This document shows positions 1 through 53,900 of a DNA stretch of 56,863 nt, piece after piece (position 1 is the stretch's first letter; each line of letters begins with the position of its first letter). A program made the translations under genes and the position numbers. Below the pieces are notes generated by a model. It saw only the letters and a list, made by a program, of their open reading frames with translations. It searched no databases and was not told the origin of the DNA. Where the stretch lies: positions 1 through 56,863 of the forward strand of contig JAZDJN010000025.1 of the NCBI GenBank assembly GCA_043803945.1, written 5' to 3'. Source of the stretch: a bacterium. GTDB taxonomy: Bacteria; Bacteroidota; Ignavibacteria; UBA10030.

Positions 1-36
1 GGCTGCCTACCGGAGCACAAAGTGCGTAGGTGGGGA

Positions 37-108
37 AATGTCGAATGCGGAATTTATCCCGAGCCCGTCGAGGGATGAAAAGCTGATTCAGAGATAGATC
101 AGCTTTTT
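37..108 (+). repeat. L-type unit L0 (heptamers, REP-like hairpin, terminator)
   Basis: aatgtcgaatgcggaat, then hairpin atcccgag..tcgagggat, then aaaagctgat..atcagcttttt; same order as copies at 188-288, 15639-15696, 27487-27612, 36807-36948, 37428-37520. Confidence 0.75.
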
Positions 109-120
109 GCTGTAAAAGGG

Positions 121-178
121 TAACACGAGTTCTCCGCCACAAAGACGGCGGATCTGTGAGAATCTCGTTGGGGGTACT
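121..178 (+). pseudogene. tRNA-Glu 3' remnant (att-site like) with 27-nt hairpin insert in the T-loop
   Basis: TAAC-ACGAG-TTC[133-159]GAAT-CTCGT-TGGGGGTA = variable loop, T arm, acceptor 3' strand; identical to the longer copy at 27405-27484 apart from the insert. Confidence 0.8.
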
Positions 179-256
179 ATAAAATTACAGAATGTTAAAA
201 TGTGGGAATGAGGGAATTCACTCCGAGCGCAGTCGAGGGGTAAAGATTTCCGCTTG

Positions 257-288
257 AAAAAGCTGGTCCAAAACAGGATCAGCTTTTT
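257..288 (+). terminator. Intrinsic terminator of L1 (likely bidirectional)
   Basis: aaaaagctggtcc-aaaaca-ggatcagcttttt stem-loop with A and T tails. Confidence 0.7.
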
Positions 289-310
289 GCATTATGAAGG
301 AAACCCTGCA

Positions 311-420
311 ACTGAATTCACAGGATCCACGGAATCGAGCTGTATAAAATTCACCTACCGTGGTAGACAATTTGGTGTACACTTCTTAGAACCTCTCTTA
401 CAGCAACATATTCAATCACT
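311..420 (+). repeat. 110-bp direct repeat (L1 distal part, with arm-type boxes)
   Basis: Matches 15720-15829 with 2 mismatches; contains gtggtagaca (360) and ttggtgtaca (372). Confidence 0.92.
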
Positions 421-6510: not shown

Positions 6511-7213
6511 CCGAAACCGGTCGCAAACGCTGATGCGGCTGAAGCACAATATCAGTTGATGGTTAAGGGACCGCGTGAAGAGGATATTCTTCAGGCCGAA
6601 GCGAATTATAGGAGCGCACAGCAGGACATGAACCGCGCAGATGAGCTGTTCAAAGCCAAGAGCATAACGAAGAAGCAACTCGAGGACATGCAAACGCGAT
6701 TCGTGGTAACCCAGCAGAGCTTCGAAAAGCTGAAACGTGGTTCCCGCCCCGAAGAAATCAGGGCAGCCCGTGCTCGGCGCGACCAGGCAGCTGCGCAGGT
6801 AGAGGCAATCCGCAAGAAGATCAGCGATTCGTTCGTGGTCGCATCGATGAGCGGCGTCGTCACGGAGAAGGGGCTAGAGCAAGGAGACGTTGTGATGCCC
6901 AATGGTTCGGTCTTCCGCATCTCACGGTTGGACAAGGTGCATCTCATGATTTATGTTTCCGAAGTAGAACTGGCTCGAGCCAAGTTAGGCCAGCCGGCCG
7001 ACGTGTCTATCGACGCATACCCGACCAAAGCCTTCCCGGGAACAGTCGTATATATCTCGGATATCGCTGAGTTTACTCCAAAGAATGTGCAGACGAAGGA
7101 TGATCGGACAAAGCTCGTGTTCAGGGTCAAAATTTAAGTGACTAATGCCGACGGATCGTTAAAGCCTGGCATGCCCGCGGATGCGACGATCCGAACCTCT
7201 TCCGGCTCGTGAA
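6511..7213 (+). pseudogene. HlyD/YbhG-like membrane fusion protein, 5'-deleted with internal stop
   Basis: GPREEDI, AEFTPKNVQTKDDRTKLVFRVKI; TAA at 7135-7137 is followed in frame by [16 protein letters not shown]; no N-terminal anchor. Confidence 0.85.
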
Positions 7214-7225
7214 GGTGAGGAACCC

Positions 7226-7860
7226 ATGGTACCAGCGATAGCGATCAAGGGATTGACAAAAACGTTCGACGGTATTACCGCCGTCGACGGCCTCGATCTG
7301 ATCATTGAACAGGGCGAGATGTTCGGCATCGTCGGACCGGACGGGGCAGGCAAAACGACGACGTTCCGGATGCTGACGGGAATCCTGATACCGACATCCG
7401 GCTCGGCAACAATCCTCGGTCACGACCTTGTAAAGGAGTCGGAAGAAATCAAGAAAGAGATTGGCTATCTCTCGCAGCGGTTCAGTTTGTACGGCGACCT
7501 GACTGTGGACGAGAACATCGAGTTCTTTGCCGAGATCAATGAAGTGTTCGACTACAAGGAGCGCCGCGAAAACCTGCTCGAATTCACCAGGCTGACACCG
7601 TTCCGCGACCGACTTGCAGACCAACTCTCCGGCGGCATGAAGCAGAAACTCGCGCTTGCGTGCACGCTCATCCATCCGTTAAAGATGTTCAAGCGTTTGG
7701 TGACAGGTTGAACGTTGTCGTCGAAAACAGCAAGCGTGACTTCCCGCCTGTTGAGCGGACGCTCATCGAGGCGAATATCCGTATTGCTGAATGGCGTATC
7801 ATCACGCCATCGCTGGAAAATATCTTTATCTCAATGATGTCTCATGAACAGAATGCATAA
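7226..7860 (+). pseudogene. ABC ATPase with internal deletion and frameshift
   Basis: GPDGAGKTT and LSGGMKQK present, stops before Walker B (TLIHP); C-terminal PSLENIFI continues in another frame. Confidence 0.85.
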
Positions 7861-9189
7861 CACGGAGTTCACCATGCTGAAAAGGCTTCTTCTCGTTACA
7901 CTTCTCCCTGCGCTTGTGCTCGCACAGGAAAAACGCGTGCTCACGATCGACGATGCAGTTCGACTCGGACTGCAGAACAGCAAACTGCTGCACATCTCAG
8001 AAGCGAAAACGATGGCGGCAGAAGCGAAGTTGAGGGAAGCGAACGCAGCCAGGTTGCCTTCACTGAAACTACAAGCAGGTTACACCCGGCTGAGCGATGT
8101 TGAGCTGTTGCTGTGAAATTGCCGTCATCGCCAACACCCATCGTGATTTCACCAACGGTGTTGGATCAATACACGTCGAAAGTGTCGTTACAGCAGCCTC
8201 TCTTCTCGGGATTCAGGCTTGAGAAGTCGGCCGCAGCCGCGGATTATTCGGCTCGGGCTTCGCATTTTGACTTTGAAAGAGACAGAGTTGATATGGTGTA
8301 CAACGTGAGGGCTGCGTACTGGGGCGTTTACAAGGCGACGGAAGTGAGGCGCGTGGTTGAGGAGAGCGTGGAGCAAACCAAGGCGCACATGAGCGATGTG
8401 AACAATATGATGGCGCAAGGGCTGGTGACAAAAAACGAAGTATTGAAGGTAGAAGTCCAGTACTCCAACGTTCAGCTTGCTCAGATTGAAGCAGCCAACA
8501 ACGTGAAGAACGCAATGATGTCGCTGAACAGCCTCAATGGATTGCCGCTTGATACTGAAGTTCGAATAGCTTCGGCGATAAAGGCTCAGACCGAGGAATC
8601 GCAGTCTGCTGACGCGTTCGCACAACTAGCACTAGTTTCGCGTGCGGACGTGAAGGCCGCGGAGATGAGAACCAACGCAGCGGATGCTTCTGTTGTCGCT
8701 ACCAATGGAGGGTGGTGGCCACAGCTCAATTTGTTCAGCAACCTCTACTACTCACGCCCCAATCAGCGCATCCTGCCGACCAGGGATGAGTTCAAGGATA
8801 CGTGGGATGTTGGTGTGAGCCTCTCGTGGGATATTTGGAACTGGGGAACGACAAAACACCAAAGCGACCAGGCTGAAGCAATACACAAACAGACACGTTA
8901 TGCGCTTGAGCAGCTGAAGGATAACGTCTCACTTGAAGTGAATCAGAGCTATCTCGCGCGGGCCCAGTCGAAAGAAAAGATCTCTGTAGCTACCAAGGGT
9001 GTTCGCCAAGCCGAAGAGAACTACCGTATGACAAAGGACAAATTTACAAACGGAACCGCAACGAACACCGATCTGCTCGATGCTGAGATTGTCCTGCTTC
9101 AATCAAAACTGAATTACACAATATCGCTCGTGGATTCTGAGCTTGCACAGGCAAAGCTGGCGAGGGCGCTTGGCAAGGAGAGCATGTGA
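7844..9189 (+). pseudogene. TolC-family outer membrane efflux protein, frameshifted near 8110
   Basis: Signal peptide and ARLPSLKL in 7844-8116; QQPLFSG, WPQL, G..TNTDLLDAE in 8113-9189. Confidence 0.85.
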
Positions 9190-9364
9190 AATGACGGAAT
9201 CATCCAGAATGTGCCGGTCCGATCTTTGAAAATACTCAGAGGCAGGAAGTATGTCTCCCGTCTGCGAAGAACCTGGTTGGTAATGTGCTTTGCCGGATCG
9301 GTGTTGAGAGCACCTGACCATGATGACTGCTCAATTTCCCTGATAGCGACAGAAAGAACAACAA

Positions 9365-9911
9365 ATGACAGACCACGCGATCGAAGTTAAGAACCTGACC
9401 AAGAAATTCGGCAGCTTTGCTGCCGTGGACAACGTGAGCTTCACAGTGAATAGGGGAGAGATATTTGGATTCCTCGGCGCCAACGGTGCGGGTAAATCAA
9501 CGACCATCAGGATGCTGATTGGATTGCTTGAGCCAACTGACGGATCCGCGACCGTCGGTGGGTTCGACGTCAAGACACAGACCGACCTGCTCAAGAGGAA
9601 CATTGGCTACATGTCGCAGCGGTTCTCGCTGTATGAAGACATGACGGTGGAGGAAAATATCCGCTTCTTTGGCGGTGTGTATGGATTGAGTAAGGAGAAC
9701 GGGATTCATTTTCCCAATTCGCAGCATGCCAGTGGCGTTGCAAGTGATTTCCAATTTATCGCCACCGAAGTTCTTCCTCATCACTCTTCGCGACATCATC
9801 CTGAAGGGCGTCGGACCAGTTGCGTTCTGGGACCAGCTCGTATACCTGTCCATCTTCGCAGCAGTGACGCTTGGCATCAGCTCGGTGCGATTGCTGAAAA
9901 AGGCAGAATAA
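9365..9911 (+). pseudogene. ABC ATPase N-terminus fused by deletion to ABC-2 permease C-terminus
   Basis: GANGAGKST and Q-loop to ~9695, then in another frame GFIFPIRSMPVALQVISNL..LRDIILKGVG. Confidence 0.85.
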
Positions 9912-9912
9912 C

Positions 9913-11040
9913 ATGAAGACGATTTATCATATCATCATAAAGGAGTTCATCCAGTTCCGAAGGGACAAGCGCATGATGATGCTTTCGTTCGCGGCGCCCG
10001 TGCTGCAACTGATCATCCTTGGTTACGCAGCAACAACGGACGTGAAAGACATCCCAATGATAGTCTACAATCAGGACAAGTCAGCTACAAGCCGCGAGTA
10101 TATCAACCGGTTTGCAAACTCCGGGTACTTCGTCATTGAGCAGGAAGTGAACGCTCTTGCCGACATTGACCCGCTTATCGAGAACGGCAAAGTGTGGATG
10201 GCGCTGGTTATTCCTCCCGACTTCTCCAGCAACCTACTCGCCCGCAAACCCGCAACCGTGCAAATAATTGCCGACGGGAGTGATGCCAACTCTGCAGGCA
10301 TCAGCCTGAGCTACGCATCGCAAATCACGGCCAAGTATTCCCAGACAATTGTTGCGCAAGCATTCGAGCGGATGCCGCAAATGCTTCGACCCGCGATGGT
10401 GAATGCCGAGACGCGTGTATGGTACAACGCGGAATTGAAGAGCCGCAACTTTATGGTCCCCGGCGTGCTGGCGATGGTACTCATGATTATCACGATGACG
10501 CTGACGTCGCTCGGCGTTGTGAAGGAGAAGGAGATTGGAACGCTGGAGCAACTACTCGTTACGCCCATCAAGCCATACCAGCTCATCATTGGCAAGCTGC
10601 TTCCGTTTGCCGTCATTGGTGTGGTGGATATTGTTCTGGTCTTAGCTGTCACGCGATGGTGGTTCGCTGTGCCACTTCGAGGGAGCGTTCCGCTCCTGTT
10701 CGGCCTAAGCGGCCTCTTCCTGCTCACCACGCTGGGGCTGGGTCTCTTCATTTCTACAATTTCCAAGACGCAGCAACAGGCAATGATGACGGCGCAGTTC
10801 TTCTTCTTCATGCCGTTCATTTATCTGTCGGGTTTCACGTTCCCGATTGAAAACATGCCGCAGGTGATACAGTATCTAACGTTTGGTATTCCACTCCGTT
10901 ACTATATCGTTATCATACGCGGATTGTTCCTCAAAGGCGTTGGGATTGCAGAACTTTGGACGCAGGCATTGGCGTTGTGGTTATTTGGGACGCTCATACT
11001 CACACTTGCAGTATGGAAATTCAAAAGCAAGCTGGGCTAA
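9913..11040 (+). CDS. ABC-2 type permease (YbhR-like), intact
   Basis: KEFIQFRRD, EKEIGTLEQLLVTP, LSGFTFPIENMP. Confidence 0.92.
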   Translation: MKTIYHIIIKEFIQFRRDKRMMMLSFAAPVLQLIILGYAATTDVKDIPMIVYNQDKSATSREYINRFANSGYFVIEQEVNALADIDPLIENGKVWMALVIPPDFSSNLLARKPATVQIIADGSDANSAGISLSYASQITAKYSQTIVAQAFERMPQMLRPAMVNAETRVWYNAELKSRNFMVPGVLAMVLMIITMTLTSLGVVKEKEIGTLEQLLVTPIKPYQLIIGKLLPFAVIGVVDIVLVLAVTRWWFAVPLRGSVPLLFGLSGLFLLTTLGLGLFISTISKTQQQAMMTAQFFFFMPFIYLSGFTFPIENMPQVIQYLTFGIPLRYYIVIIRGLFLKGVGIAELWTQALALWLFGTLILTLAVWKFKSKLG

Positions 11041-15031: not shown

Positions 15032-15617
15032 CAATTGGGTACAAGGAATATCCACAGTGGTGTTCCTCTTTAAATAGTCCACCCGGACCAGAATATCGTC
15101 TGATTCGGGGTGTTGTGCTAAGAAATGCTAAAGCTCCCGATGTTCATCGCCGGTCAGAATTTCCAGTGCTCGTTTCGTGAATATTGGGATTTCGATAATG
15201 AGCATAATGCACTATGCGCCATGGGCGTATAATTGGTTCAAGCCAGTATGCCGTTTCGGCCGGATTCACTGTATGGTTTTAGACTTGTGTCTATCCCGTA
15301 TAATAAAACTTGGCTGAGTGTGTCATTGCTCCAGTAATGAAGGATCCGTTCCGCCAAGAGTATTTGAAGGGATGATTATGACAGCAGGTATTCGTTTTTA
15401 GCTCTATTAGCTACGAGGCCATAATCCGAGCATCAGAAGCTTTATGGGAAGTAACATAATCATCAAAATACTGTACTTTCAATGTTCAGTTCTTGATAAC
15501 TGATTTTTTTAACGACCCATATCAATGAATATTGTTTTTGTAAGAAGAGTGTCAACGAGAGAGATCTACTACCTGGTAAAACACTCTGTTTTCCTCACTC
15601 AATGCTCTGCTGATCCG

Positions 15618-15829
15618 GTTGGGGGTACTTGAAATTTAGAATGACGAATGTCGAATGCGGGATTGAAAAAGCTTGCTGGAAACGGATAAGCTTTTTGGTT
15701 TATGTAAGAATACCACCCCACTGATTTCACAGGATCCACGGAATCGAGCTGTATAAAATTCACCTACCGTGGTAGACAATTTGGTGTGCACTTCTTAGAA
15801 CCTCTCTTACAGCAACATATTCAATCACT
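15618..15829 (+). repeat. L-type unit L2
   Basis: GTTGGGGGTACT tRNA 3' tip, GAATGAC-GAATGTC-GAATGCG, terminator 15666-15696, 110-bp repeat of 311-420. Confidence 0.88.
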
Positions 15830-27404: not shown

Positions 27405-27484
27405 TTTTCAAGCCTGTAACACGAGTTCGCCTCCCCGCCGGAGTTGGAATCCAAAACGCAGGCGGGAATCTCGTTGGGGGTACT
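27405..27484 (+). pseudogene. tRNA-Glu(TTC) 3' half (attR-like) with 37-nt T-loop insert
   Basis: TTTCAA-GCCTG-TAAC-ACGAG-TTCG[insert]AAT-CTCGT-TGGGGGTA: anticodon loop onward; 5' half absent. Confidence 0.85.
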
Positions 27485-40532: not shown

Positions 40533-43379
40533 ATGAAACCATTCACTGTATTTTCATTGCTGTTTTTAATAGCAGCGCAGCTTCCTGCCCAGACCACAGA
40601 TCCAATACTTATGCTTAACACGGAGATGCACACATCCAAGATCAATCGTATTGCGACGGATCCGATGGGAAAATATATCTTAACTTGCTCTTTTGATAAG
40701 ACCGCCAAACTTTGGGATGCCGCTACAGGATCACTTCTCCATACATATCGTGTACCAATCGATCTGGGGAATGAAGGGATGCTCTATGCATGTACACTCT
40801 CACCCAATGCAAAAATAATAGCCGTCGGCGGATGGACAAAGTATCGATGGGAAAGTAAATATTCAATTTATCTCTTCAATATCTTTACAGGTGAGATAAT
40901 TGGTAGTCTTAAAGAATTATCAAATGTAATTTTTGATCTTGAGTTCTCTCCTGATGGTAAATATTTAGCTGCAGCCTTAGCTTCTGAGGGAGTACGCATT
41001 TTCAATACTCAGTCATGGGAACTTGAACACTCACTAACAGGGTATTCGGGTATATGTTACAATATTTCTTTTAATGCGAAGGGCTGCATGGCTTCTGTAT
41101 GCAATGATGGTACAGTGAGACTTTATAACTCATCATTTGAATTGATAAAAGAGATGCAAACCAAAGTGGGGGAAAAACCGTATTCGCTTGCATTTTCTCC
41201 CGATGGAAGTAAATTAGCGGTGGGCTATGATGATTCTCCAACGATTCAGGTTCTGGATGGCTATGACCTTGATTTGTTGTATGAACCAGATATTACAGGA
41301 GCAAAATCATTGGGGAATCACTTTATTCAAGTTTGTTGGTCATTTGATGGTCAATACTTGATTGCAGGTGGATATAATTCGATCTACAAGAATCAGAAAT
41401 CGTGGAAGCAGATAAGAATATGGAATGATAAGGGAAGAGGAAGCTATTCAGATTATAGTGCCTGCGATAATTCATTGATGGACAGTAAACCCATGCCTGA
41501 CAATTCAATTCTTTACTGTGGCTCTCAACCAGATTTTGGAAGGATGACTTTCACCGGGAATTTGGTATTCTATAAATCAGGAGAGACCAATACCTATAGT
41601 GCAAGAGACAAGTCTTATCTGAAAATCAACAAAGATGGAAGTGTCTTGGGTTTTACTCCATCTGGAAAAGCTGCCTTGACATTTGATCTTCGTAATAGAT
41701 TATTGACGAGGGAAAAAGCTGAATATCCTTCATATACCGATAGCACATCTGCTATCGCTGTTACAGATTGGGATGAATCTCACTCTCCCAAAATCAATGG
41801 AAAAGTTCTGAGCATATTGAGTAATAACGAGCGGTCCTATAGTACAGATATTGACGCTAACACTTGTAGAGTTATCATTGGTGCCTCTTGGAATCTCTAT
41901 TGCATAGATGAAGATGGAAAGATTCATTGGAAAACTCCATCTCAAGCTTCAGTATGGGCAGTCAATATTTCCGGGAATGAAAAAGTCGTTGTGGCGGCTG
42001 TGGGGGATGGCACACTCAGATGGTATCGGATGAGTGATGGAACGCTCTTACTCTCACTCTTTGTCCATCCGGACGACCGGTGGGTTCTCTACACTCCCTC
42101 GGGATACTACGATGCATCCGCAGGTGGTGAGAACCTAATCGGGTGGCATCTGAATAATGGCATGGATAAGGCGGCGGATTTCTACTCGATCTCAAAGTTC
42201 CGTTCGTCATACTATCGCCCGGAAGTGATCTCACAGATTCTGAATACGTATGATGAAGCCAATGCGATCAAGCTTGCCGAGAGAGAGTCAGGTAAGTCGA
42301 AACAACCAACCAGCATTAAAATAATCCTGCCGCCAACGGTGAGAATCGTAAGCCCATTGGATGGGACAGAAATATCGAGTAAGCGGATTACGATCGGATA
42401 CACGGCCAAATCTGCGGGTGGAGAGAGCATCACGGGAATAAAAGCGCTCATCGATGGACGACCTGAATCGACACAGCGAGGTATGAAAATATCTGGAACG
42501 GGGGGTGAAGGGAGTATCACCGTTGCGATTCCGGAGAGAGATTGTGAAGTATCCTTGATTGCCGAGAACGTCAATGGATACAGCGAGCCGGCGAGGGTGA
42601 GCTTGAAATGGAGAGGGAAGGTTGAGAAGCTTGATATCCGACCGAAGCTGTATCTTCTCTCGATCGGTGTCAGTCAATATCAGGATCAAGAGTTGACGCT
42701 GGCACTGGCGTCGAAGGATGCATCGGATTTTGCCAATGCTCTGCGGAGGAATGGCTTGGTATTGTATCGGGATGTTGTCGTGAAGGTACTCACTGATGTG
42801 CAGGCAACCAAGGCGGAAATCCTGGATGGTTTGGAATGGATCCAGAAGGAGACCACCTCGAGGGATGTAGCGATGATCTTCTTTGCCGGACATGGGGTGA
42901 ATGATGCCTCGGGAATGTTCTACTATCTGCCGGTGGATGCGAACACTGAGAAGTTGAAGCGGAGTGCAATTCCAGCCTCAGAGTTTGTGAACACTGTTGG
43001 ATCGGTAGCGGGCAAAGTGCTTGTGTTTGCCGATGCGTGTCATTCAGGGAATATTATGGGAGGACGGCGGGGATCGCCGGATATCATATCGGTAGTGAAC
43101 GAACTATCGAGCGTGGAGAATGGAGCAGTGACGTTTACGTCATCGACGGGAAAACAATACTCGTTGGAGGATAAAAGTTGGGGGAACGGTGCGTTCACGA
43201 AGGCATTGGTGGAAGGATTGTCAGGAAAGGCGGATTATACGAAAACGGGAGTGATTACGGTGAAGGCACTTGATATGTATATCACAGAGAGGGTGAAGGA
43301 ACTAACGAAAGGGCGGCAGTCACCGACAACCGTAGTGCCGCCGAACACTCCTGACTTTCCGATTATCGTTATCAAATAG
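40533..43379 (+). CDS. Secreted WD40-repeat caspase-family (peptidase C14) protein
   Basis: Signal peptide, DKTAKLWD and FSPDG repeats, TPSGYYDAS, catalytic FFAGHG and DACHSG. Confidence 0.92.
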   Translation: MKPFTVFSLLFLIAAQLPAQTTDPILMLNTEMHTSKINRIATDPMGKYILTCSFDKTAKLWDAATGSLLHTYRVPIDLGNEGMLYACTLSPNAKIIAVGGWTKYRWESKYSIYLFNIFTGEIIGSLKELSNVIFDLEFSPDGKYLAAALASEGVRIFNTQSWELEHSLTGYSGICYNISFNAKGCMASVCNDGTVRLYNSSFELIKEMQTKVGEKPYSLAFSPDGSKLAVGYDDSPTIQVLDGYDLDLLYEPDITGAKSLGNHFIQVCWSFDGQYLIAGGYNSIYKNQKSWKQIRIWNDKGRGSYSDYSACDNSLMDSKPMPDNSILYCGSQPDFGRMTFTGNLVFYKSGETNTYSARDKSYLKINKDGSVLGFTPSGKAALTFDLRNRLLTREKAEYPSYTDSTSAIAVTDWDESHSPKINGKVLSILSNNERSYSTDIDANTCRVIIGASWNLYCIDEDGKIHWKTPSQASVWAVNISGNEKVVVAAVGDGTLRWYRMSDGTLLLSLFVHPDDRWVLYTPSGYYDASAGGENLIGWHLNNGMDKAADFYSISKFRSSYYRPEVISQILNTYDEANAIKLAERESGKSKQPTSIKIILPPTVRIVSPLDGTEISSKRITIGYTAKSAGGESITGIKALIDGRPESTQRGMKISGTGGEGSITVAIPERDCEVSLIAENVNGYSEPARVSLKWRGKVEKLDIRPKLYLLSIGVSQYQDQELTLALASKDASDFANALRRNGLVLYRDVVVKVLTDVQATKAEILDGLEWIQKETTSRDVAMIFFAGHGVNDASGMFYYLPVDANTEKLKRSAIPASEFVNTVGSVAGKVLVFADACHSGNIMGGRRGSPDIISVVNELSSVENGAVTFTSSTGKQYSLEDKSWGNGAFTKALVEGLSGKADYTKTGVITVKALDMYITERVKELTKGRQSPTTVVPPNTPDFPIIVIK

Positions 43380-43854
43380 GTGGTAGTCTATTCTCATAGT
43401 CATACACACGTATTTTCCCAATCATTTTCAGGTATTTGCCCGAGATCTATCCAGCCTATCATTGTTACTGACACATTTGTGTTATTGACTCTACTGGCAA
43501 ACATTTCTACCTTAATAACAATAGTCATACCTTCAGTACCGTGCTGGGGCATGCCGTGGGGAAGGATTATGTGTACTTCCAAAGGAGTAAACCAGGCAAC
43601 TCCTACAAACCTCCGGACACGCATAAATAGTTTACTGAAGCAGACCGATATTTAACTAGAAAGTTGGACGAAAAGTCCAACCACAAAGGACACTAAGGAT
43701 GCGAAGAATAAAAAGAAAAAAGAGTAATGGAAATTTAAATTAATTCAACAACTTTTCCTTTGTGTCCTTTTCGACCGGGTCTCTAGATCGGATTCAGTTA
43801 TTTCACGAATTATGTTACAATAATTGATACCCTCACACCCCTCGGGAGGGAACC

Positions 43855-45822
43855 ATGCGTATCACCTCTCAAGCCGTAGCGACATTTCTTATTCTACTAC
43901 TAAGTTGTTCATACCTCATAGCGCAGGATCGCGGCTTCCGCAATATCGTCAAAGACCCCGATACCGGCTCGGAACTCCGTGCCTATAACGAAAGCTGGGC
44001 GGTCATTATCGGCATCGATAAGTATCAGCATGTCCAACAATTGGATTACGCAGTTGCTGATGCCGTAGCGATCAAGAATCTTCTGTTAGAGACCTTCGGT
44101 TTCAAGCAGGAAAAGATTTTCCTTCTCACAGATAACAATGCAACCCGCACAAATATAATCAAAACACTAGGCGATCTGACACAAACTAAGGAAGAAGACC
44201 GTGTCCTTGTCTTCTTTGCCGGCCATGGTGAAACAGTGGATCAACCGATGGGCGGACAGATGGGGTACCTCATTCCGGTCGATGGAAAAGCATCTTCCTT
44301 CAGCGACCTCTCGGTCACGTCGATTCGCATGTCGGAAATCCGGGAGATATCGAATATTATTTCTGCAAAACATATGCTCTTCCTCGTTGACGCCTGCTAC
44401 GGCGGATTGGCTGCGACTGGTGCCCGTTCACTCACAAAAGAGATGAAAGGCTATATCAGGAAAGTTACCGCAGCACGTGCCCGGCAAATCCTGACTGCCG
44501 GAGGCCGAGGGGAACAGGTCATCGAAAAACCTGAATGGGGGCATAGTGCATTTACCTATCGGCTGCTCGATGGCTTGGGCAAAGGACTTGCCGATCTTGA
44601 TGAAAACAAGATCATCACCGGAAGAGAATTGGCAACCTATGTCGAATCCAAAGTCGCGCAAATGACGGAGAATCGCCAGCGCCCGCAATTTCGCTGCTTT
44701 ACAGAAGATGAAGGTGAGTTCCTGTTTATTCTTCCAATGGTGGCAACCGGATCACTTTCTCTCTCTTCTCAACCTAACGGGACAGAAGTTTTTCTTAATC
44801 GGCAACTCAAGGGCTCTACACCGATAGCAATCAGGGACTTAACTCCAGGACAGTATGAGATTATACTGAAGAAAGAGGGCTATCAAGATTTAACTCAGTC
44901 AATCAAAATTGAAGCAGGAGTTGAAGCCTCAATCACTCCGAAACTCATAAAGCTGAGCAAACTGAGAATCGAGTCCGATCCGCCAGGTTCTGATGTCTTT
45001 CTCGATGGTAATTACATTGGTAAGACACCGGTTCCTGATCAGAATGTTGCTCCCGGGATGATCAACGTGCGGGTAAAGAAAGATGGTTACGGAGAATGGA
45101 ATCGCAATTTTAGCATTGAACCAGAGAAAGATCTTCCACTCTCTATCAAACTTGAGAGCGATGCTGGCTTCCTTTCGATTTCTGTTTCACCTCCTGATGT
45201 AGAAGTGTATATCGATGGAAAGAAAGCCGGAGCGGGAGCACTTCAGAGTTTGAGACTTCCGACAGGGAGTCACGAAATTCAACTCAAACATCCATCGTAT
45301 GCTGGTGCACTAAGTGAAAAAGTATCAATACAACCCTCAATGGAATCGAGAGTTGAAGGAAGGTTTGGTGTCTTTACAATGACACCGGCGTTACGTTCTA
45401 TGCTCCTGCCAGGATTGGGACAGTTGATGAATGGCTCGACCTTGAAAGGTGTGCTCTGCCTTGCAGGTACTCTCGGCGGCGGTGTGTATTCATTGCTGAG
45501 TTACTCAGACTACACGAAGAAAACCGACACCTATACTGCATCGGTTGATGCTTACAATAAAGCCCAGACAGTAGCAGATGCAAATCGGTTGAGGCAGGAA
45601 ATGCAACAGCATTATGTTCAAGTGGATGATGCGAAGAAGAAGAAGACCATAAGCCTGGCGGTTTTAGCTGGAGCATATGTGGTGAACCTCCTCGATGCAT
45701 TGATCTTCGAATCGAATGGAGGAGAGATAAAGATTTTAGCTAAGGATGGCATTGTTAAGATACATCCCAATCTCACCATCGATGATGTCGGTATGCGTCT
45801 GGGAGTACAAGTGAGATTCTAA
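43855..45822 (+). CDS. Caspase-family protein with three PEGA domains and C-terminal membrane segment
   Basis: Signal peptide, AVIIGIDKY, FFAGHG, DACYGG; SQPNGTEVFLN, SDPPGSDVFLDG, SPPDVEVYIDG; SMLLPGLGQ. Confidence 0.92.
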   Translation: MRITSQAVATFLILLLSCSYLIAQDRGFRNIVKDPDTGSELRAYNESWAVIIGIDKYQHVQQLDYAVADAVAIKNLLLETFGFKQEKIFLLTDNNATRTNIIKTLGDLTQTKEEDRVLVFFAGHGETVDQPMGGQMGYLIPVDGKASSFSDLSVTSIRMSEIREISNIISAKHMLFLVDACYGGLAATGARSLTKEMKGYIRKVTAARARQILTAGGRGEQVIEKPEWGHSAFTYRLLDGLGKGLADLDENKIITGRELATYVESKVAQMTENRQRPQFRCFTEDEGEFLFILPMVATGSLSLSSQPNGTEVFLNRQLKGSTPIAIRDLTPGQYEIILKKEGYQDLTQSIKIEAGVEASITPKLIKLSKLRIESDPPGSDVFLDGNYIGKTPVPDQNVAPGMINVRVKKDGYGEWNRNFSIEPEKDLPLSIKLESDAGFLSISVSPPDVEVYIDGKKAGAGALQSLRLPTGSHEIQLKHPSYAGALSEKVSIQPSMESRVEGRFGVFTMTPALRSMLLPGLGQLMNGSTLKGVLCLAGTLGGGVYSLLSYSDYTKKTDTYTASVDAYNKAQTVADANRLRQEMQQHYVQVDDAKKKKTISLAVLAGAYVVNLLDALIFESNGGEIKILAKDGIVKIHPNLTIDDVGMRLGVQVRF

Positions 45823-47904: not shown

Positions 47905-50900
47905 ATGAAAAATATTCCTGACTTGAATGAGTTCTGTTTACGAGCAATTGCGATATCAGTCATTAAGCAATATCGACAGAGGTTGAAACATATTGCTGAG
48001 ATTATTGCTTTGCTATTGCTCATTCCTCCGATTATGTTTGCCCAAAATTTCTGGCAGCAGACGAATGGACCATACGCGGGCAATATATATTCTCTTGTAG
48101 TCAATTCATCCGGCCACGTTTTTGCAGGAACATATGGCGGTGGAATATTTCGTTCGACAGATGGTGGAAACAATTGGAACCAGATCAATAATGGACTGAG
48201 TGGCTTTGGATGGAACAGACAGTCTGTTAGCCTTGCCATTAATTCAGATGGGATACTCTATGCGGCAGCCGGACGAGTGTACAGATCGGTTGACAATGGA
48301 GATTCCTGGAGTGCGATCGATAGTGATTTACCCTCCAACTCCGCTGTATGTGTTATCGTCGGTGCAACGGGTCAAATCTACGTAGGGACTTCTGACAAGG
48401 GTGTGTTTCGTTCGAGAAATAATGGAGGGAATTGGATAGCGGCGAACAAAGGCGCCTCAAATGCAAATATAATCTCGCTTGCAGTGAACACGGCGGGGCA
48501 CATATTTGCAGCTGTATATCTGGATGGAATCTACCGCACAGTGGACAGCGGAGCAACCTGGATTCAGGTGCAACAGAAGATCTCGGCAGGAAATACAACG
48601 GGATTAGCGATAAACTCCTTCGGACATATTTTCGCAGCAATCAATGGAGCTGGTATCTATAGATCGATGAATAACGGAGATAGCTGGACTGATCTCTCTT
48701 ATTACAATTGTACATCGGCGATATTCATCAACAGCTCTGGACATATTATTACTGCAAAGGCACGATCAATAAACAATGGCGCGAGCTGGATGGATATGCA
48801 AGGCGTGCCCTCATTTATTAAATGTTTCGGAGAACAATCCTCTGGAATCCTCTACGCTGGTTCAGAAGATGCGGGTGTTCTTAAATCAATTGATAATGGC
48901 AATAGTTGGCAAAAATCTAATAACGGATTGAAAAACTCTTATGTCACCAGCTTGCTTGCTATTGGATCCGGTGCAATCCTAGCCGGCGATCAACATGACG
49001 GGCTCTTCAGTTCCACAAATGCCGGCAATGAATGGAAGCGCGTTGCTGAGGGCTATGTCGCTTCTCTCTGCCGCGACTCGGCGGGAATCGTGTATCTTGG
49101 AGGATTCTCAACGATTTCGCGATCACTGGACAATGGGCTTACCTGGAAACCTCTGTTCGCTTCTGGTTGGCAATCTTCAATTGCAGTCAATACGCAAGGG
49201 CATGTTTTTACTGGAACGAACAATGGCCTGTATCGCTCAACAAATAACGGCGATACCTGGGTGGAGTTGAGCAATGGATTAACGACAAGGAATATCTTCG
49301 CTCTATCTATAAACTCTTCAGGTCACATCTTTGCAGGAACTGCAGGTGGCGGCATCTATCGCTCTACAAGTAATGGAAACAGTTGGCAACAATCCAATTC
49401 AGGCTTAGGTCAATCGATGATCCAGAGTGTCTTCTGTGAACCTTCGGGGAGAATATTTGTTGGAACACAGTCAGCAGGAATATTCTATTCCACAAATAAT
49501 GGAGATAGTTGGACCCAGTCACTTAGTGGGCAAACAGTTCACGGCTTTGCAATGAACTCATCAGGCCACCTGTTTGCGGCTGCCTCGGATGGTGTGGTTC
49601 GTTCAAGGGACAGTGGAGTTACATGGCAAAAATTCTATCAATCCCCGAGTAGCGAGCCCTGGATGTGGGCGAAATCTCTTCTTGTCGACTCCTTGGGATT
49701 CCTCTATGTGGGTACCAATTATGATGGTGTTCTTCGTTCAGCAAAAACAACAATCACTCCACTCGTACCGATTTTAGCTTCACCGGCGAATGGCTCGATA
49801 GATCTCAGCAAGAACTTTACATTAACATGGTATCCCTCAAATGCAGCCGAGTCGTACTGTCTTCAAGTCGCTAAAGATTCGCTCTTTACTCAATTGTTAG
49901 TTGATCAATCGGCGATCGCAACTACATCAAAGGGAGTGTCACTTCAATTTTCTACCACCTATTATTGGCGTGTTCGAGCAGAGAACGAAAATGGATTGAG
50001 TGCCTGGTCGCCATTCCGAAGATTTACTACGGTGGAAGGGCCGATCCTTGGTGAATATACTCCTGATGCTAACACTGTTCTTCTCATGCACTTGAACGAA
50101 ACCAGCGGCAACACAGTAAAGGATGTCAGTGAAAACAAATACATGGGGACATTCGGGGCTGGCTCGTTTGTGCCGGGGAGATTTGGGAATGCATTTCAAC
50201 CGAGCGATTCTGCTGGCATCGTGATACAGTCATTTTCAACATTTGATCTTGGCAATCAATTCACAGTTGAAGCATGGATTAGACTCTCATCTTTTCCTTC
50301 AAGTGGAGTAGACATCCTAATGTTAGGAAGAAACAACTCTATTAATTTTTATATAATACCTGATTTGCGGCTCAGATTGTATTTGTACTTCTCAAATGGT
50401 ACTCAAGGAGATTTGTTGACCAATCAACCGATGATTTCTTTGGGTGTATGGCACCATGTCGCAGTGACGTTCAACAATGGTTTGGTTTCTATCTATATTA
50501 ATGGTGAGTTGAAGGAGAGAAATAATTATTATCCTTCTGTACAAAAAACAATTGGTACCTCGTATATTGCTGGTACTTTCTATAACAGTGAAATGTATCA
50601 TGGATTGATTGATGAGATTCGCGTTTCAAAAATTGCCCGCGATCCAAGCGAGTTCAATCTTCAACGTCCACCCCAAAATCTTACATCTACCGCGAACGCC
50701 AATTCGCTTCAATTAATATGGCAAAACGGTGGTGGTGCAGCACCTCTGATGCGCTACAAGATATATAGAGGTATTGATTCTCTTAATCTCACTTTCATCG
50801 ATTCAACAATGAGCACATCATATACCGATACAAAAATAACGCTTGGGTCACCATATTTCTATCGAGTTTCTGCTGTTGACTCTACAGGATTTGAAGGAGC

Positions 50901-53900
50901 AAAGAGCTATGTAACGCGAGCTGCTACATCGTTATTCGGTGAATATCAACCTGATGCAAATACGGTCGTGCTCTTGCATCTGAACGAAGAGAGAGGAGTT
51001 ATTGCCAATGATGCAAGTAACTTTAAAAATGATGGGACCTTCAATAAATCGAGTGTCTTTATTGGGAGATTTGGTCGAGGGAGAAAATTCGACGCACAAA
51101 GTTCGATTACTATACCATATTCATCTTCAGTAAAAATAGGTGGATCCGATTTCACCATCGAAGGCTGGATTAAGACTGATACTCCTTCTGATTCATGGGG
51201 TTGGCGTTTCTTCTCGAACTATGATGGAATAAAAGGACTCTATATTGATATCCGTCAAATCGGATTGCCAGTGCTAGGTTTGATAGACGCTGCTGGAAAA
51301 CAAGTTGAAGTAAATGGTGTACGTCAAATTGATGATCTCAAATGGCATCATCTGGTTGTAAGACGTATAGGATTTCAAATGACACTCTTTGTAGATGGAA
51401 TATTGGAATCTGGAATTGATATTTCAAGCATGGGAAGCTTTTCAACGAATGCAACTATAACTTTAGGCGCTGTAGGAGTTGCCAATCGTACAGATTATTT
51501 CATTGATGAAATTCGTATCTCTAATTTAGCCCGCTCTTCTGGAGAATTCAACCTCCAGCTTCCTCCTGTAAACATCAGTGCTACTTCTGTGTCATCAACG
51601 GTTAATCTTTCTTGGCAAAATGGTGGCGGAGCCGTGCCATTGATGCGATACAAGATTTATCGGGGTACTGATTCAATGAATGTTACACTCATCGATTCAA
51701 CGGTAAATACATCGTATACCAATTCCGGTCTGACAACCGGCACCACGTATTATTATCGCGTCGGCGCTGTGGACTCTACCGGATTTGAAGGAGCAAAGAG
51801 CTATGCGGTTAGAGTACAACCTCCAATTCCAGGCCCTACACTATCCTCTCCTGTAAACGGTTCATCTAATCTTGCAACAACGACTACGCTGACGTGGAAC
51901 CCGTTCGTCGGAGCTTCAGTATATCAAGTTCAAGTATCAGGTGATTCACTCTTCCGTAGCACCTTCTTCATGAATGATTCAACAATTTCTGCTGTAACCA
52001 AAACTGCCTCAGGTCTCATTAAAAGCATATCATATTATTGGCGTGTGAGAGCAAAAACGACAAGCGGGTGGAGCCTGTATTCAAATACCTGGAATTTCCA
52101 GATCGCACCAACAAGCATTACTCCTCCCGTTACTCAAGGAATGTGGCAGCAAACAAATGGGCCATATGGCTCTTGCGGAATCCTTTCGCTTGCGGTAAAT
52201 AGCTCAAACCATCTTTTTGCAGCGACCGAAGAGGGTATCTACCGATCAATAAATAATGGTCAAACGTGGACTCCAATTAATAATGGAATGACATCATTCG
52301 GCGAGGCAGGTCCAAGATGTGTTGCTCTGGCAATGACTCCAAAGGGTGATCTCTTTGCTGCCTGGTATTCAGTCTATCGCTCGACCGATAATGGTGATAG
52401 TTGGAGCCAACACAGCTCTGGTCTTGATGGACCCGTTGCCTGCTTTCTGACGACGGTGGATGGAACTGTCTTTGCAGGACGAGATAAAGGGGCCTTCCGG
52501 CTGGTACAAGGAAGTAATACCTGGTCAGCGGTGAATGCAGGGATCACCAATTTAAATATTCGTTCGATGGTGCAATCAACTGACGGAACTCTCTTTGCTG
52601 GAGCGATGAATGGCGAAATCTTCCGGTCAACAAATAATGGGGACAATTGGAATCAATTAAGCACCGGTATCCCTAGCCTTGAGATTCGATCACTCGCAGT
52701 CGATTCATCGGGATCAGTATATGCAGGTACATTAAGAGGTCCTGTCTATAAATCCACAAACAATGGGACTACCTGGACGAGCCTCGGAATCGAGGGTGAG
52801 ACAACCGCTATCTTAGTCAATCGAGAAAATCAAGTTTTTGTTGGGGGAGGAGGAGGTAGTAATCATGGTTTGTCTCGATCAACTGATGGAGGAAGTACCT
52901 GGGTATTTATACAAAACGGAATTTTAAGAGAAATTGTACAATCACTTGCGTTAACACCATCTGGTAATCTTGTTGCAGGAACATATTCAGGTGTATTTTT
53001 ACCAACCAGCAATGGTGATAGCTGGAAAAAAATCAATAACGGGATAAAGAATAGCAGGATCTTTTCAATGTTTCCTACATCATCGGGAAGCATTCTCGCG
53101 GCAGTACTTAATACTGGAATTCACAGTACAACTGATGCCGGGCTAACGTGGGTGGAACAGAAGGATATTCCTTACTACATCGCAGGTCAATTTGTTAAGA
53201 ATTCTCTAGGGCACATTTTTCTCTCAGACCGCAATTCTGGCGTCTATCGATCAACGGATGATGGACGAACTTGGACTTCAATCAATGCAGGACTAACTCA
53301 ACAGGTATGGGCAATTGCAGTTGGGAGATATGATCACCTCTACGCAGGGACAAGTTCAGGAGTATTTCGATCCACAAATAATGGTGATAGTTGGACACAA
53401 AAAAGTAATGGACTTCCCGCGGAGGTAGCCCATGTCATAACCGCATTACCGAGTGGTCAACTATTTATTGGAACTGCGAGCAGTCACCTGTATCGTTCGG
53501 ACAATAATGGAGAAACATGGATACAATCCGATGCTGGAATTAGTGGACGTATGGTATTTTGTTTCTACACGGATTTCTCAGGAACGCTTTATGCTGGCAC
53601 AAATCAAGGAGATAGTTTGGGAGTATATCGAAGCACCGATAATGGAGCTAATTGGTTAAGGATTAGTGGTAACACTTTCATCTCAGCGGTAAACACTATT
53701 TCCCAAAATGCCTCTGGCCACTTCTTTGTTGGATCGGATAATATCTACCGTTCGATTGATAAAGGCATGACGTGGTCTAGAGGTTCGTGGACCACCAAGC
53801 CAACAGGTTTATATGGGTATGTGACTTCGCTCTTCTTTGACAGTCTCGGTTATGGATATGCAGGCACAGAGAGATCTGGTGTTTTTCGAACTTCTAAAAC

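Follow-up and report, generated by a model that had tools for sequence, protein, structure and literature searches.

Hairpin-split tRNA-Glu 3′ ends in an Ignavibacteria genome and their possible link to minimal GIY-YIG nucleases

The window analysed here is a whole contig of 56,863 nucleotides (JAZDJN010000025.1, referred to as C25) from the draft genome of a bacterium of the Ignavibacteria (UBA10030; GCA_043803945.1). It begins just past the 3′ end of the only tRNA-Glu(UUC) gene of that genome and carries two truncated copies of the 3′ part of this tRNA, each of which is interrupted by a GC-rich hairpin at the same bond of the T-loop. We regard it as an evenly balanced proposition that these copies are old 3′ ends of tRNA-Glu that have been displaced from the gene, and that hairpin modules belonging to a nuclease-linked, tRNA-gene-targeting selfish system occupy their T-loops, having either landed there or been delivered there, and so disable the copies. 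Below we describe the anatomy of the copies and of their counterparts at other tRNA genes, the behaviour of the hairpin modules elsewhere in the genome, the recurrence of the pattern in relatives and in other phyla, and the candidate enzymes.

Anatomy of the split tRNA-Glu copies

The host draft genome (5.54 Mb, 46.5% G+C) encodes 47 tRNA genes together with a tmRNA. Its single tRNA-Glu(UUC) gene is found outside the window, on contig C12 at c[124-197]. Because the end of C12, when reverse-complemented, overlaps window positions 1-107, the intact gene can be placed with its end 16 nt before the first base of the window. Its T arm is normal and uninterrupted (ACGAG TTCGAAT CTCGT); thus the insert is not an intron-like feature of the gene itself, an outcome that the initial annotation of this DNA, made from the sequence alone, had named as one that would speak against its own reading.

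Both window copies comprise only the 3′ part of tRNA-Glu, the 5′ half being missing, and both are split between TTC and GA(AT) by inserts whose sequences are unrelated to each other (Table 1). The initial annotation had reported two tRNA remnants split at one T-loop position by different hairpins, and the letters are indeed present at the places it gave. The intact tRNA-Glu that it mentioned, however, lies on C12 and not inside the window, and a third copy (15612-15628), whose T stem is that of another allele (CCGG type), had been missed. A fourth copy, decayed and hairpin-split, is located at C13:245-320. Taken with the intact gene, the copies at 120-177, 15612-15628 and 27405-27483 make up a series of direct repeats of the tRNA-Glu 3′ part that bound inserted DNA in the manner of att sites, the inserted segments measuring about 150 nt, 15.4 kb and 11.9 kb. 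Each tRNA-Glu copy is followed by a related trailer, which consists of a GAATG-rich stretch and a terminator-like hairpin.

The split tRNA-Glu pattern occurs at only two places in the 5.54-Mb genome, and a control in which the pattern was read backwards gave no matches in 61 genomes, which excludes a chance origin. When treated as single-stranded DNA, both inserts form hairpins enclosed by the T stem.

Two simpler identities were considered for the copies and ruled out. They are neither functional nor intron-bearing tRNAs: ARAGORN and Rfam each detected no RNA gene in the window, the copies have no 5′ half, and the intact gene is uninterrupted. Nor do they contain an archaeal-type or other tRNA intron, since the genome is bacterial (both tmRNA and tRNA-SeC are present) and its intact gene has no insert.

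Table 1. Displaced tRNA-Glu copies and associated repeats in the window.
Feature	Position	Strand	Basis
Copy 1, left half (from variable loop through 5′ strand of T stem to TTC), GTAACACGAGTTC	120..132	+	13/13 identical to intact gene
Copy 1, insert of 27 nt: hairpin TCCGCC-ACAAAGAC-GGCGGA with 7-nt tail TCTGTGA	133..159	+	sequence, fold, family of ~38 copies
Copy 1, right half (GAAT, then 3′ strands of T stem and acceptor, and discriminator), GAATCTCGTTGGGGGTAC	160..177	+	16/16 anchor bases identical
Copy 2, left half (from anticodon loop to 5′ strand of T stem and TTC), TTTTCAAGCCTGTAACACGAGTTC(G)	27405..27428/9	+	identical to intact gene from TTTTCAAGCC on
Copy 2, insert of 37 nt: hairpin CCCGCC..GGCGGG with inner small stem	27429..27465 or 27430..27466	+	junction ambiguous by one G
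Copy 2, right half (GAAT, then 3′ strands of T stem and acceptor), GAATCTCGTTGGGGGTAC	27466..27483	+	sequence and genome-wide anchor scan
Third tRNA-Glu 3′ copy, TCCGGTTGGGGGTAC	15612..15628	+	begins in T-loop; no left half, no hairpin; CCGG-type T stem as in G003
Hairpin of same family as 37-nt insert, GCTGCCTACCGGAG..GCGTAGGTGGGG	1..40	+	in trailer, 16 nt past intact tRNA-Glu; by-eye comparison with 27429-27466 and G003; folded
Trailer/terminator module, repeated after third tRNA-Glu copy at 15663-15829	254..420	+	blastn 89% over 168 bp

Split copies of other tRNAs in the same genome

The genome was scanned with the 3′ anchors of all 47 tRNAs (the last three T-loop bases, the 3′ strand of the T stem and 8 acceptor bases, allowing up to 2 mismatches), with the second condition that a matching T stem 5′ strand plus TTC be present within 110 nt upstream. 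This search for split T-loops across all tRNAs, which the initial annotation had proposed, revealed hairpin-split 3′ copies for nine tRNA species: Gly-ccc, Glu-ttc, Arg-tcg, Arg-acg, Asn, Val-cac, Leu-taa, Met-cat and Gln-ttg. There are about 17-19 split copies in total, tandem arrays included; an additional one, of Thr-cgt at C1:648, came from the survey of the 27-nt hairpin family described below and not from the anchor scan. Only one clean case of an uninterrupted T-arm copy was found, that of Met on contig C39. Six more gapped matches have two anchor mismatches each and no hairpin, five of the six also having one mismatch in the left anchor, and are counted as chance.

All of the split copies lie on the strand of their tRNA, and each either comes after a short segment (about 100-150 nt) that has a terminator of its own or forms part of a tandem array, with units of about 108 nt for Asn and of 99 nt, in at least seven copies, for Met. 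Past the last copy the flank is a different one. The layout is thus that of an intact gene, an inserted segment and an old 3′ end, and not that of a plain tandem duplication.

Two loci on other contigs depart from this plan. At C98:6240-6560, tRNA-Ser(UGA) and a GIY-YIG open reading frame (ORF) are followed by a dead copy of the middle part of the tRNA, in which the anticodon arm is replaced by the 15-nt mini-hairpin TCTGCCTTCGGCGGA. At C99:20700-21151, the end of a GIY-YIG ORF falls inside the 5′ part of tRNA-Pro(GGG), and before the ORF there is a dead 5′ copy of that same tRNA with a hairpin in its D-loop region; the same kind of unit therefore seems to operate from the 5′ side too.

The inserts belong to families of hairpin modules

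In seven of the nine split tRNA species, two adjacent 15-nt mini-hairpins of the form T-SNGCC-NNN-GGCNS-A make up the insert or form its basis. One such double hairpin is TGAGCCGTAGGCTCA + TGCGCCTCTGGCGCA, placed as TTC^[30 nt]^GAGT without duplication, and the genome has 27 loci with strict doublets. The 30-nt double hairpin is also seen directly to be present in some copies of a repeat of about 200 nt and absent from others, at CCAC^GAAGG in a small hairpin loop and again with no target duplication, which identifies it as a discrete insertion. The repeat itself is palindromic (CTAGAAACCTGGACGAAAAGTCCAACCAC ... CTAG) and has many copies, often at contig ends, among them C42:15950-16150, C57:8850-9060, C98:84040-84250 and C26:99080-99290, all outside the window; its copies vary both in the presence of the double hairpin and in nested hairpins.

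The inserts of the window represent two further families. The 27-nt family (TCCGCC-GTCTKTTK-GGCGGA with a short leader) has about 38 copies in the genome, most of them nested in, wedged between or next to mini-hairpins, including those inside split Met, Val and Thr copies. The 37-nt family, GCCTGCCCGCC..GGCGGG(CAGG), is a third type with at least 10 copies, one of which occupies window positions 1-40. With about 38, 27 and at least 10 members, respectively, of the 27-nt family, the strict doublets and the 37-nt family, these short imperfect palindromes exist as many extragenic copies, as do repetitive extragenic palindromes (REPs). The junction of a module with its target is mostly C^GA or C^AA, though not uniformly so, and no target duplication is seen at T-loops or in the repeat of about 200 nt.

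Tiny palindromic modules are strongly concentrated at TTC^GA of dispensable tRNA copies and in other hairpin loops, as the initial annotation had anticipated; a lack of such enrichment is what it had said would tell against it. Its claim that the two inserts arose independently survives in part. Since they belong to different elements, one from the family of about 38 copies and the other from that of at least 10, the inserts do record separate events, but these were not recent local ones, each type being common to other genera.

Recurrence in relatives and across phyla

The 37-nt insert type of the second site was found in three tandem 142-nt tRNA-Glu units of G003, a genome from a different genus, and the 27-nt type of the first site in tRNA-Glu copies of G132, G133 and G149, which represent two further genera. 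Set beside the window, the latter three show no difference in the T-arm halves or the hairpin stem, but a variable loop and 7-nt tail. The gene order in G133 is that of the genome under study (tRNA-His, tRNA-Glu, trailer, split copy, trailer), and in G149 an uninterrupted tRNA-Glu copy adjoins the split one. Because each insert recurs at the same tRNA-Glu position in other genera, neither can be a recent private event.

Of 277 genomes of the order (Ignavibacteria-type), 109 contain the junction of GTTC with a mini-hairpin, compared with two matches in all for the backwards-read control. We sampled 56 of these loci: 16 picked for multiple matches and 40 more, for which the first listed match was taken, one per genome, from 40 other genomes. 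All 16 multi-copy loci proved to be T-loops of tRNA 3′ copies (Val, Ser, Ala, Leu, Thr, Lys and Gly), with an intact cognate or neighbouring tRNA visible within the fetched stretch in 14. Among the 40 single loci, classification by eye, which replaced an automatic T-arm classification that was too lax (34/40), gave 22 clear and four probable T-loops of tRNA copies.

Beyond the order, the double hairpin at GGTTC^..^RA gave at least 118 matches when one genome was taken per species. Labels among the matches listed include Ignavibacteria, Bacteroidota, Chlorobi(aceae), many Patescibacteria lineages, Margulisiibacteriota, Kryptoniota, Omnitrophota, Planctomycetales, Gammaproteobacteria, WOR-1 and one metagenome-assembled genome (MAG) of Nanoarchaeota, and the labels Ignavibacteria(e), Ignavibacteriales and Ignavibacteriaceae are frequent among them. 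The cross-phylum analysis covered 80 loci with DNA, out of these at least 118 matches; the T stem around the hairpins has at least 4/5 pairs in 56 of the 80, and an intact tRNA lies upstream on the same strand in 52.

Such conservation raises the question of whether split copies are kept for a function of the extended T arm, such as a processing or termination signal or a decoy for tRNA-binding factors. The 27-nt-type T-arm halves and stems are identical in four genomes of three genera, whose loops, tails and flanks differ, and the copies sit on the tRNA strand just 3′ of the gene, as such a function would predict. However, the conserved halves can be accounted for by gene conversion from the nearby intact gene. 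Furthermore, in arrays the 5′ strand of the T stem drifts (GCAGG, GCTGG, ACTGG) against a constant CCAGC, so that T-stem pairing is not maintained there, at most three T-stem pairs are left in 24 of the 80 cross-phylum loci, and neither an Rfam match nor more than weak fold z-scores were obtained. We consider selection for a structure of this kind very improbable.

Enzymes in and around the units

A search for tyrosine integrases (PF00589) was negative on C25, C12 and C13 and on the contigs that carry tRNA-Glu in G003, G132, G133 and G149, and a Pfam analysis of the 36 ORFs of the window detected neither tyrosine nor serine recombinases, the serine type being covered by this window scan only. 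Across the host genome, the tyrosine integrase nearest to any split copy is 23 kb away, whereas the sole uninterrupted copy, that of Met on C39, lies about 460 nt from a tyrosine integrase gene. The description of the copies as spent att sites, put forward in the initial annotation, thus captures their resemblance to attR but not the company they keep, as no integrase is found with the split copies and it is the unsplit one that adjoins such a gene. The same observations bear on the simplest explanation, in which the copies are plain attR scars of integrase-borne islands that have picked up random insertions and deletions. While the extent of the copies, from the variable or anticodon loop to the 3′ end, is typical of att identity blocks, ordinary decay is already contradicted by the recurrence counts, with the same bond affected in at least nine tRNA species here, in many phyla and, within the order, in 109 of 277 genomes, and always by structured GC hairpins; in addition, no integrase accompanies the copies. 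We attach next to no probability to it. A 31-codon ORF after the tRNA-Glu copy of G132 (L188), which had seemed to us to resemble an integrase relic, was dropped, as that contig is negative for PF00589.

The initial annotation had proposed that the hairpins are moved in trans by an HUH enzyme, either a REP-associated tyrosine transposase (RAYT) or a TnpA of the IS200/IS605 type. In such a scheme REP-like non-autonomous hairpins would be inserted 3′ of GTTC by an enzyme that mistakes the T arm for its own hairpin. There are 12 matches to Y1_Tnp (RAYT-like) in the genome, and the targets are hairpin loops. The lack of target duplication and the largely constant C^GA junction are also as expected of peel-and-paste elements, a mechanism known from the IS200/IS605 literature cited in PMC11893778. 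When we looked for a transposase gene flanked by the same hairpins, however, all 12 matches were found to be flanked by distinct hairpin repeats of their own, and TGAGCC, TGCGCC or TCCGCC modules flank none of them. No Y1 gene was seen by eye in the sampled split-copy loci, where a Y1 profile scan was not made. Furthermore, the modules recur in conserved form across phyla, while a REP family is usually restricted to one lineage. We therefore think an HUH enzyme unlikely to be responsible; the gene linked to the hairpins, here and in other phyla, instead encodes a minimal GIY-YIG nuclease. Twelve RAYT-like genes, each with its own hairpin family, are an unusually rich REP-type set for one genome.

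The link to GIY-YIG genes is a direct observation. The genome encodes 13 small GIY-YIG proteins, and six of the genes abut a tRNA gene or copy, their neighbours being tRNA-Asp (contig C109), tRNA-Pro-ggg (on its 5′ side), tRNA-Ser-gct, tRNA-Ser-tga, tRNA-Ser-cga and the Asn array; several of the 13 have hairpins on both sides. A GIY-YIG ORF lies between the tRNA and the split copy at nine of the 56 order loci and at the junction in 16 of the 80 cross-phylum loci. Such tRNA-linked ORFs often end in or just before the first hairpin (as in L021, L024, L030 and L048). One of the encoded proteins, of 89 residues, matches only the UPF0213 structure (1ZG2, E 0.009) and a group I intron endonuclease model, weakly and below the cut-off. 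A GIY-YIG ORF was also noted at C41:1600-2000 between two pieces of a tyrosine recombinase gene, the break falling between HTFRHS and FATHLLENG, with PF00589 matching only the C-terminal piece.

A proposal for the origin of the split copies

From these data we infer an enzyme, a single-stranded DNA substrate and a disabling role for the inserts, combined as follows. DNA would insert at the 3′ part of tRNA-Glu such that the old 3′ end is pushed downstream and a new 3′ end keeps the gene whole. The displaced T arm, a small hairpin with the loop TTCGA, would then receive a GC-rich hairpin module exactly between TTC and GA; we propose that modules occupy this loop because the T arm offers them both a hairpin and a suitable loop motif. 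Insertion or spread would be driven by a hairpin-recognising minimal GIY-YIG nuclease acting on single-stranded DNA. At many tRNA genes in many phyla the usual module consists of two 15-nt mini-hairpins, and complete units there carry a gene for a GIY-YIG nuclease of about 90 residues. Insertion of a module would be tolerated only in a dispensable tRNA copy and, its T arm destroyed, the copy would cease to be a target, a recombination partner or a tRNA-like transcript.

Alternatively, the hairpins may not be mobile at all, but may form a fixed right-end structure of units that insert in T-loops, arriving together with the inserted DNA and perhaps acting as a terminator of the nuclease gene or as a guard against re-cutting or recombination of the displaced T arm. 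Nearly all displaced copies carry hairpins (nine tRNA species against one without), as does each unit in arrays whose units are 86-142 nt long; the same design of two 15-nt hairpins occurs at the same bond across phyla; in complete units the nuclease ORF runs up to the first hairpin (in the four loci named above); and both window inserts are shared with other genera along with the tRNA-Glu halves. A built-in end does not sit well, however, with the many non-tRNA places at which the double hairpin and the 27-nt module are found, with their presence or absence in one and the same repeat and their nesting in each other's loops, with the use of three different hairpin families at the same T-loop bond, or with the uninterrupted tRNA-Glu copy beside the split one in G149. 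It is possible, though we doubt it. Because modules behave elsewhere as independent insertions, we prefer a later arrival of the hairpins in copies that had already been displaced.

Several results weigh against the proposal that nuclease-linked modules entered displaced tRNA-Glu copies. The window inserts are not the canonical double hairpin, so that their link to the nuclease units is made by analogy, and the fold energy z-scores of the two split copies are modest (-2.2 and -0.5) and not exceptional. The window contains no GIY-YIG gene or relic (none by Pfam on its 36 ORFs and a best E-value of 3.1 in a six-frame search with hidden Markov models), and elsewhere the nuclease gene is absent from 47 of the 56 order loci and 64 of the 80 cross-phylum loci. 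In 14 of the 40 one-per-genome junctions the tRNA copy is unclear or not recognisable. The homologous trailer modules of about 170 bp past the 15.4-kb and 11.9-kb segments fit homologous exchange and site-specific insertion equally well. A search of metagenome contigs for empty-site alleles of either window copy (0-30 nt in the T-loop plus copy-specific flank) gave no matches. Finally, GIY-YIG enzymes form no covalent DNA intermediate by which a hairpin might be pasted in.

Taking the cross-phylum data at their broadest, we would tentatively suggest that hairpin modules and minimal GIY-YIG nucleases might together constitute a cross-phylum class of mobile DNA that lands at TTC^GA of the T arm and builds integrase-free, integron-like arrays at tRNA genes, each unit restoring the gene and pushing a hairpin-disabled 3′ end downstream, with units ranging from about 75 nt to islands of 12-15 kb that include the two described here; this wider view is more doubtful than not. 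If our reading is correct, it would amount to a second kind of selfish DNA exploiting tRNA genes besides integrase-borne islands, one that occurs widely, in 109 of 277 genomes of the order as well as in MAGs from many phyla, and acts through DNA hairpins and a nuclease family of about 90 residues that lacks an assigned role in most genomes. It would also provide a recombinase-free route by which accessory DNA builds up at tRNA genes, would make the T arm as single-stranded DNA a candidate natural substrate of minimal GIY-YIG nucleases, and would account for many of the "tRNA fragments" and short tandem repeats after tRNA genes that trouble annotation pipelines.

Relation to known systems

The units share with integrase-borne islands the direct repeats of a tRNA 3′ end that flank the insert in the form of attL/attR fragments, the supply of a new 3′ end by the insert and the formation of arrays at one tRNA gene. 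They differ in having no integrase in or near them, in the regular splitting of the displaced copy in its T-loop and in their small size, down to about 75-150 nt; in the one classical case in this genome, the Met copy by the integrase on C39, the copy is unsplit. Mobile endonuclease ORFs of fungal mitochondria supply a gene with a new terminus, so that the original one stays behind, dead, further downstream. The logic of new and old ends is the same there, but the targets are organellar protein genes and the old copy contains no hairpin.

With REPs, the bacterial interspersed mosaic elements (BIMEs) built from them and their RAYTs, as well as with miniature IS200/IS605 elements, the modules have in common that they are short, multi-copy extragenic palindromes, cause no target duplication, are linked to single-stranded hairpins and tend to nest or cluster. 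The RAYT genes here nevertheless carry other hairpins, and the modules, unlike REPs, are conserved across phyla. To our knowledge, a preference for the T-loop of tRNA copies is not among the described properties of REPs, and literature searches for it were likewise negative.

The closest enzymatic parallel is provided by the Ssn nucleases, a minimal GIY-YIG family reported to bind hairpin repeats (NTS/SRM) and to cut single-stranded DNA beside them (Chenal et al. 2025, PMC11893778). Ssn proteins resemble those described here in being minimal GIY-YIG proteins of about 90 residues tied to many short hairpin copies, which often lie beside the gene. The published single-domain protein has about 94 residues and stands beside its repeats, while in the relatives studied here ORFs end at the double hairpin; the comparison is one of size and layout and not of subfamily (cd10448). 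The main text of that paper mentions tRNA nowhere, and the hairpins here are 15-nt mini-hairpins or other types that differ from the published motif. A second parallel is SegB, a free-standing GIY-YIG homing endonuclease in the tRNA cluster of phage T4 (PMC2330249), which is likewise the product of a small GIY-YIG gene among tRNA genes, one reported to be inherited preferentially together with flanking tRNA sequence. It is a phage gene, however, and is not known to be accompanied by a duplicated tRNA end or a hairpin-split copy; homing by the units described here, by comparison, would be our own extrapolation.

In a search of full-text literature, with subscription journals and supplements outside its scope, neither hairpin-split tRNA copies nor bacterial GIY-YIG units linked to tRNA genes were found to be described. 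As a recurrent habit, hairpin-split tRNA copies appear not to have been described in print.

Other features of the window and its surroundings

The 15.4-kb and 11.9-kb segments encode two-component systems, parts of ABC and efflux systems (several of them fragmented), a protein resembling cytochrome oxidase subunit I, a permease and small enzymes; Pfam analysis of the window ORFs identified neither a recombinase nor a GIY-YIG gene in them. If the copies are displaced 3′ ends as proposed, the 27 kb between the tRNA-Glu copies would be best regarded as two accreted accessory segments. At window 6556-9916, in the 15-kb segment, the efflux and ABC genes appear fragmented, with a short HlyD-type piece, two ABC ATPase ORFs cut short at 176 and 183 aa, and an outer-membrane factor divided between ORFs of 90 and 358 aa; they probably represent pseudogenes or frameshifts.

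Directly upstream of the window, on the reverse strand of C12 at about 200-800, a small gene lies between tRNA-His and tRNA-Glu, bracketed by long imperfect inverted repeats rich in GAATG/CATTC. We take its product to resemble the four-helix-bundle "23S rRNA intervening sequence" protein. The same arrangement of tRNA-His, small gene and tRNA-Glu was found in G003 (locus L003), and the trailers after each tRNA-Glu copy in the window share the GAATG-rich motif of the C12 inverted repeats.

Past the tRNA-Glu copies, window 40533-45822 and 47905-56643 contain three large ORFs, for a WD40-caspase (Peptidase_C14) of 948 aa, for a protein of caspase-PEGA type of 655 aa and for a product of 2912 aa. 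Reading the sequence by eye, we noted a putative type IX secretion sorting tail at the end of the window.
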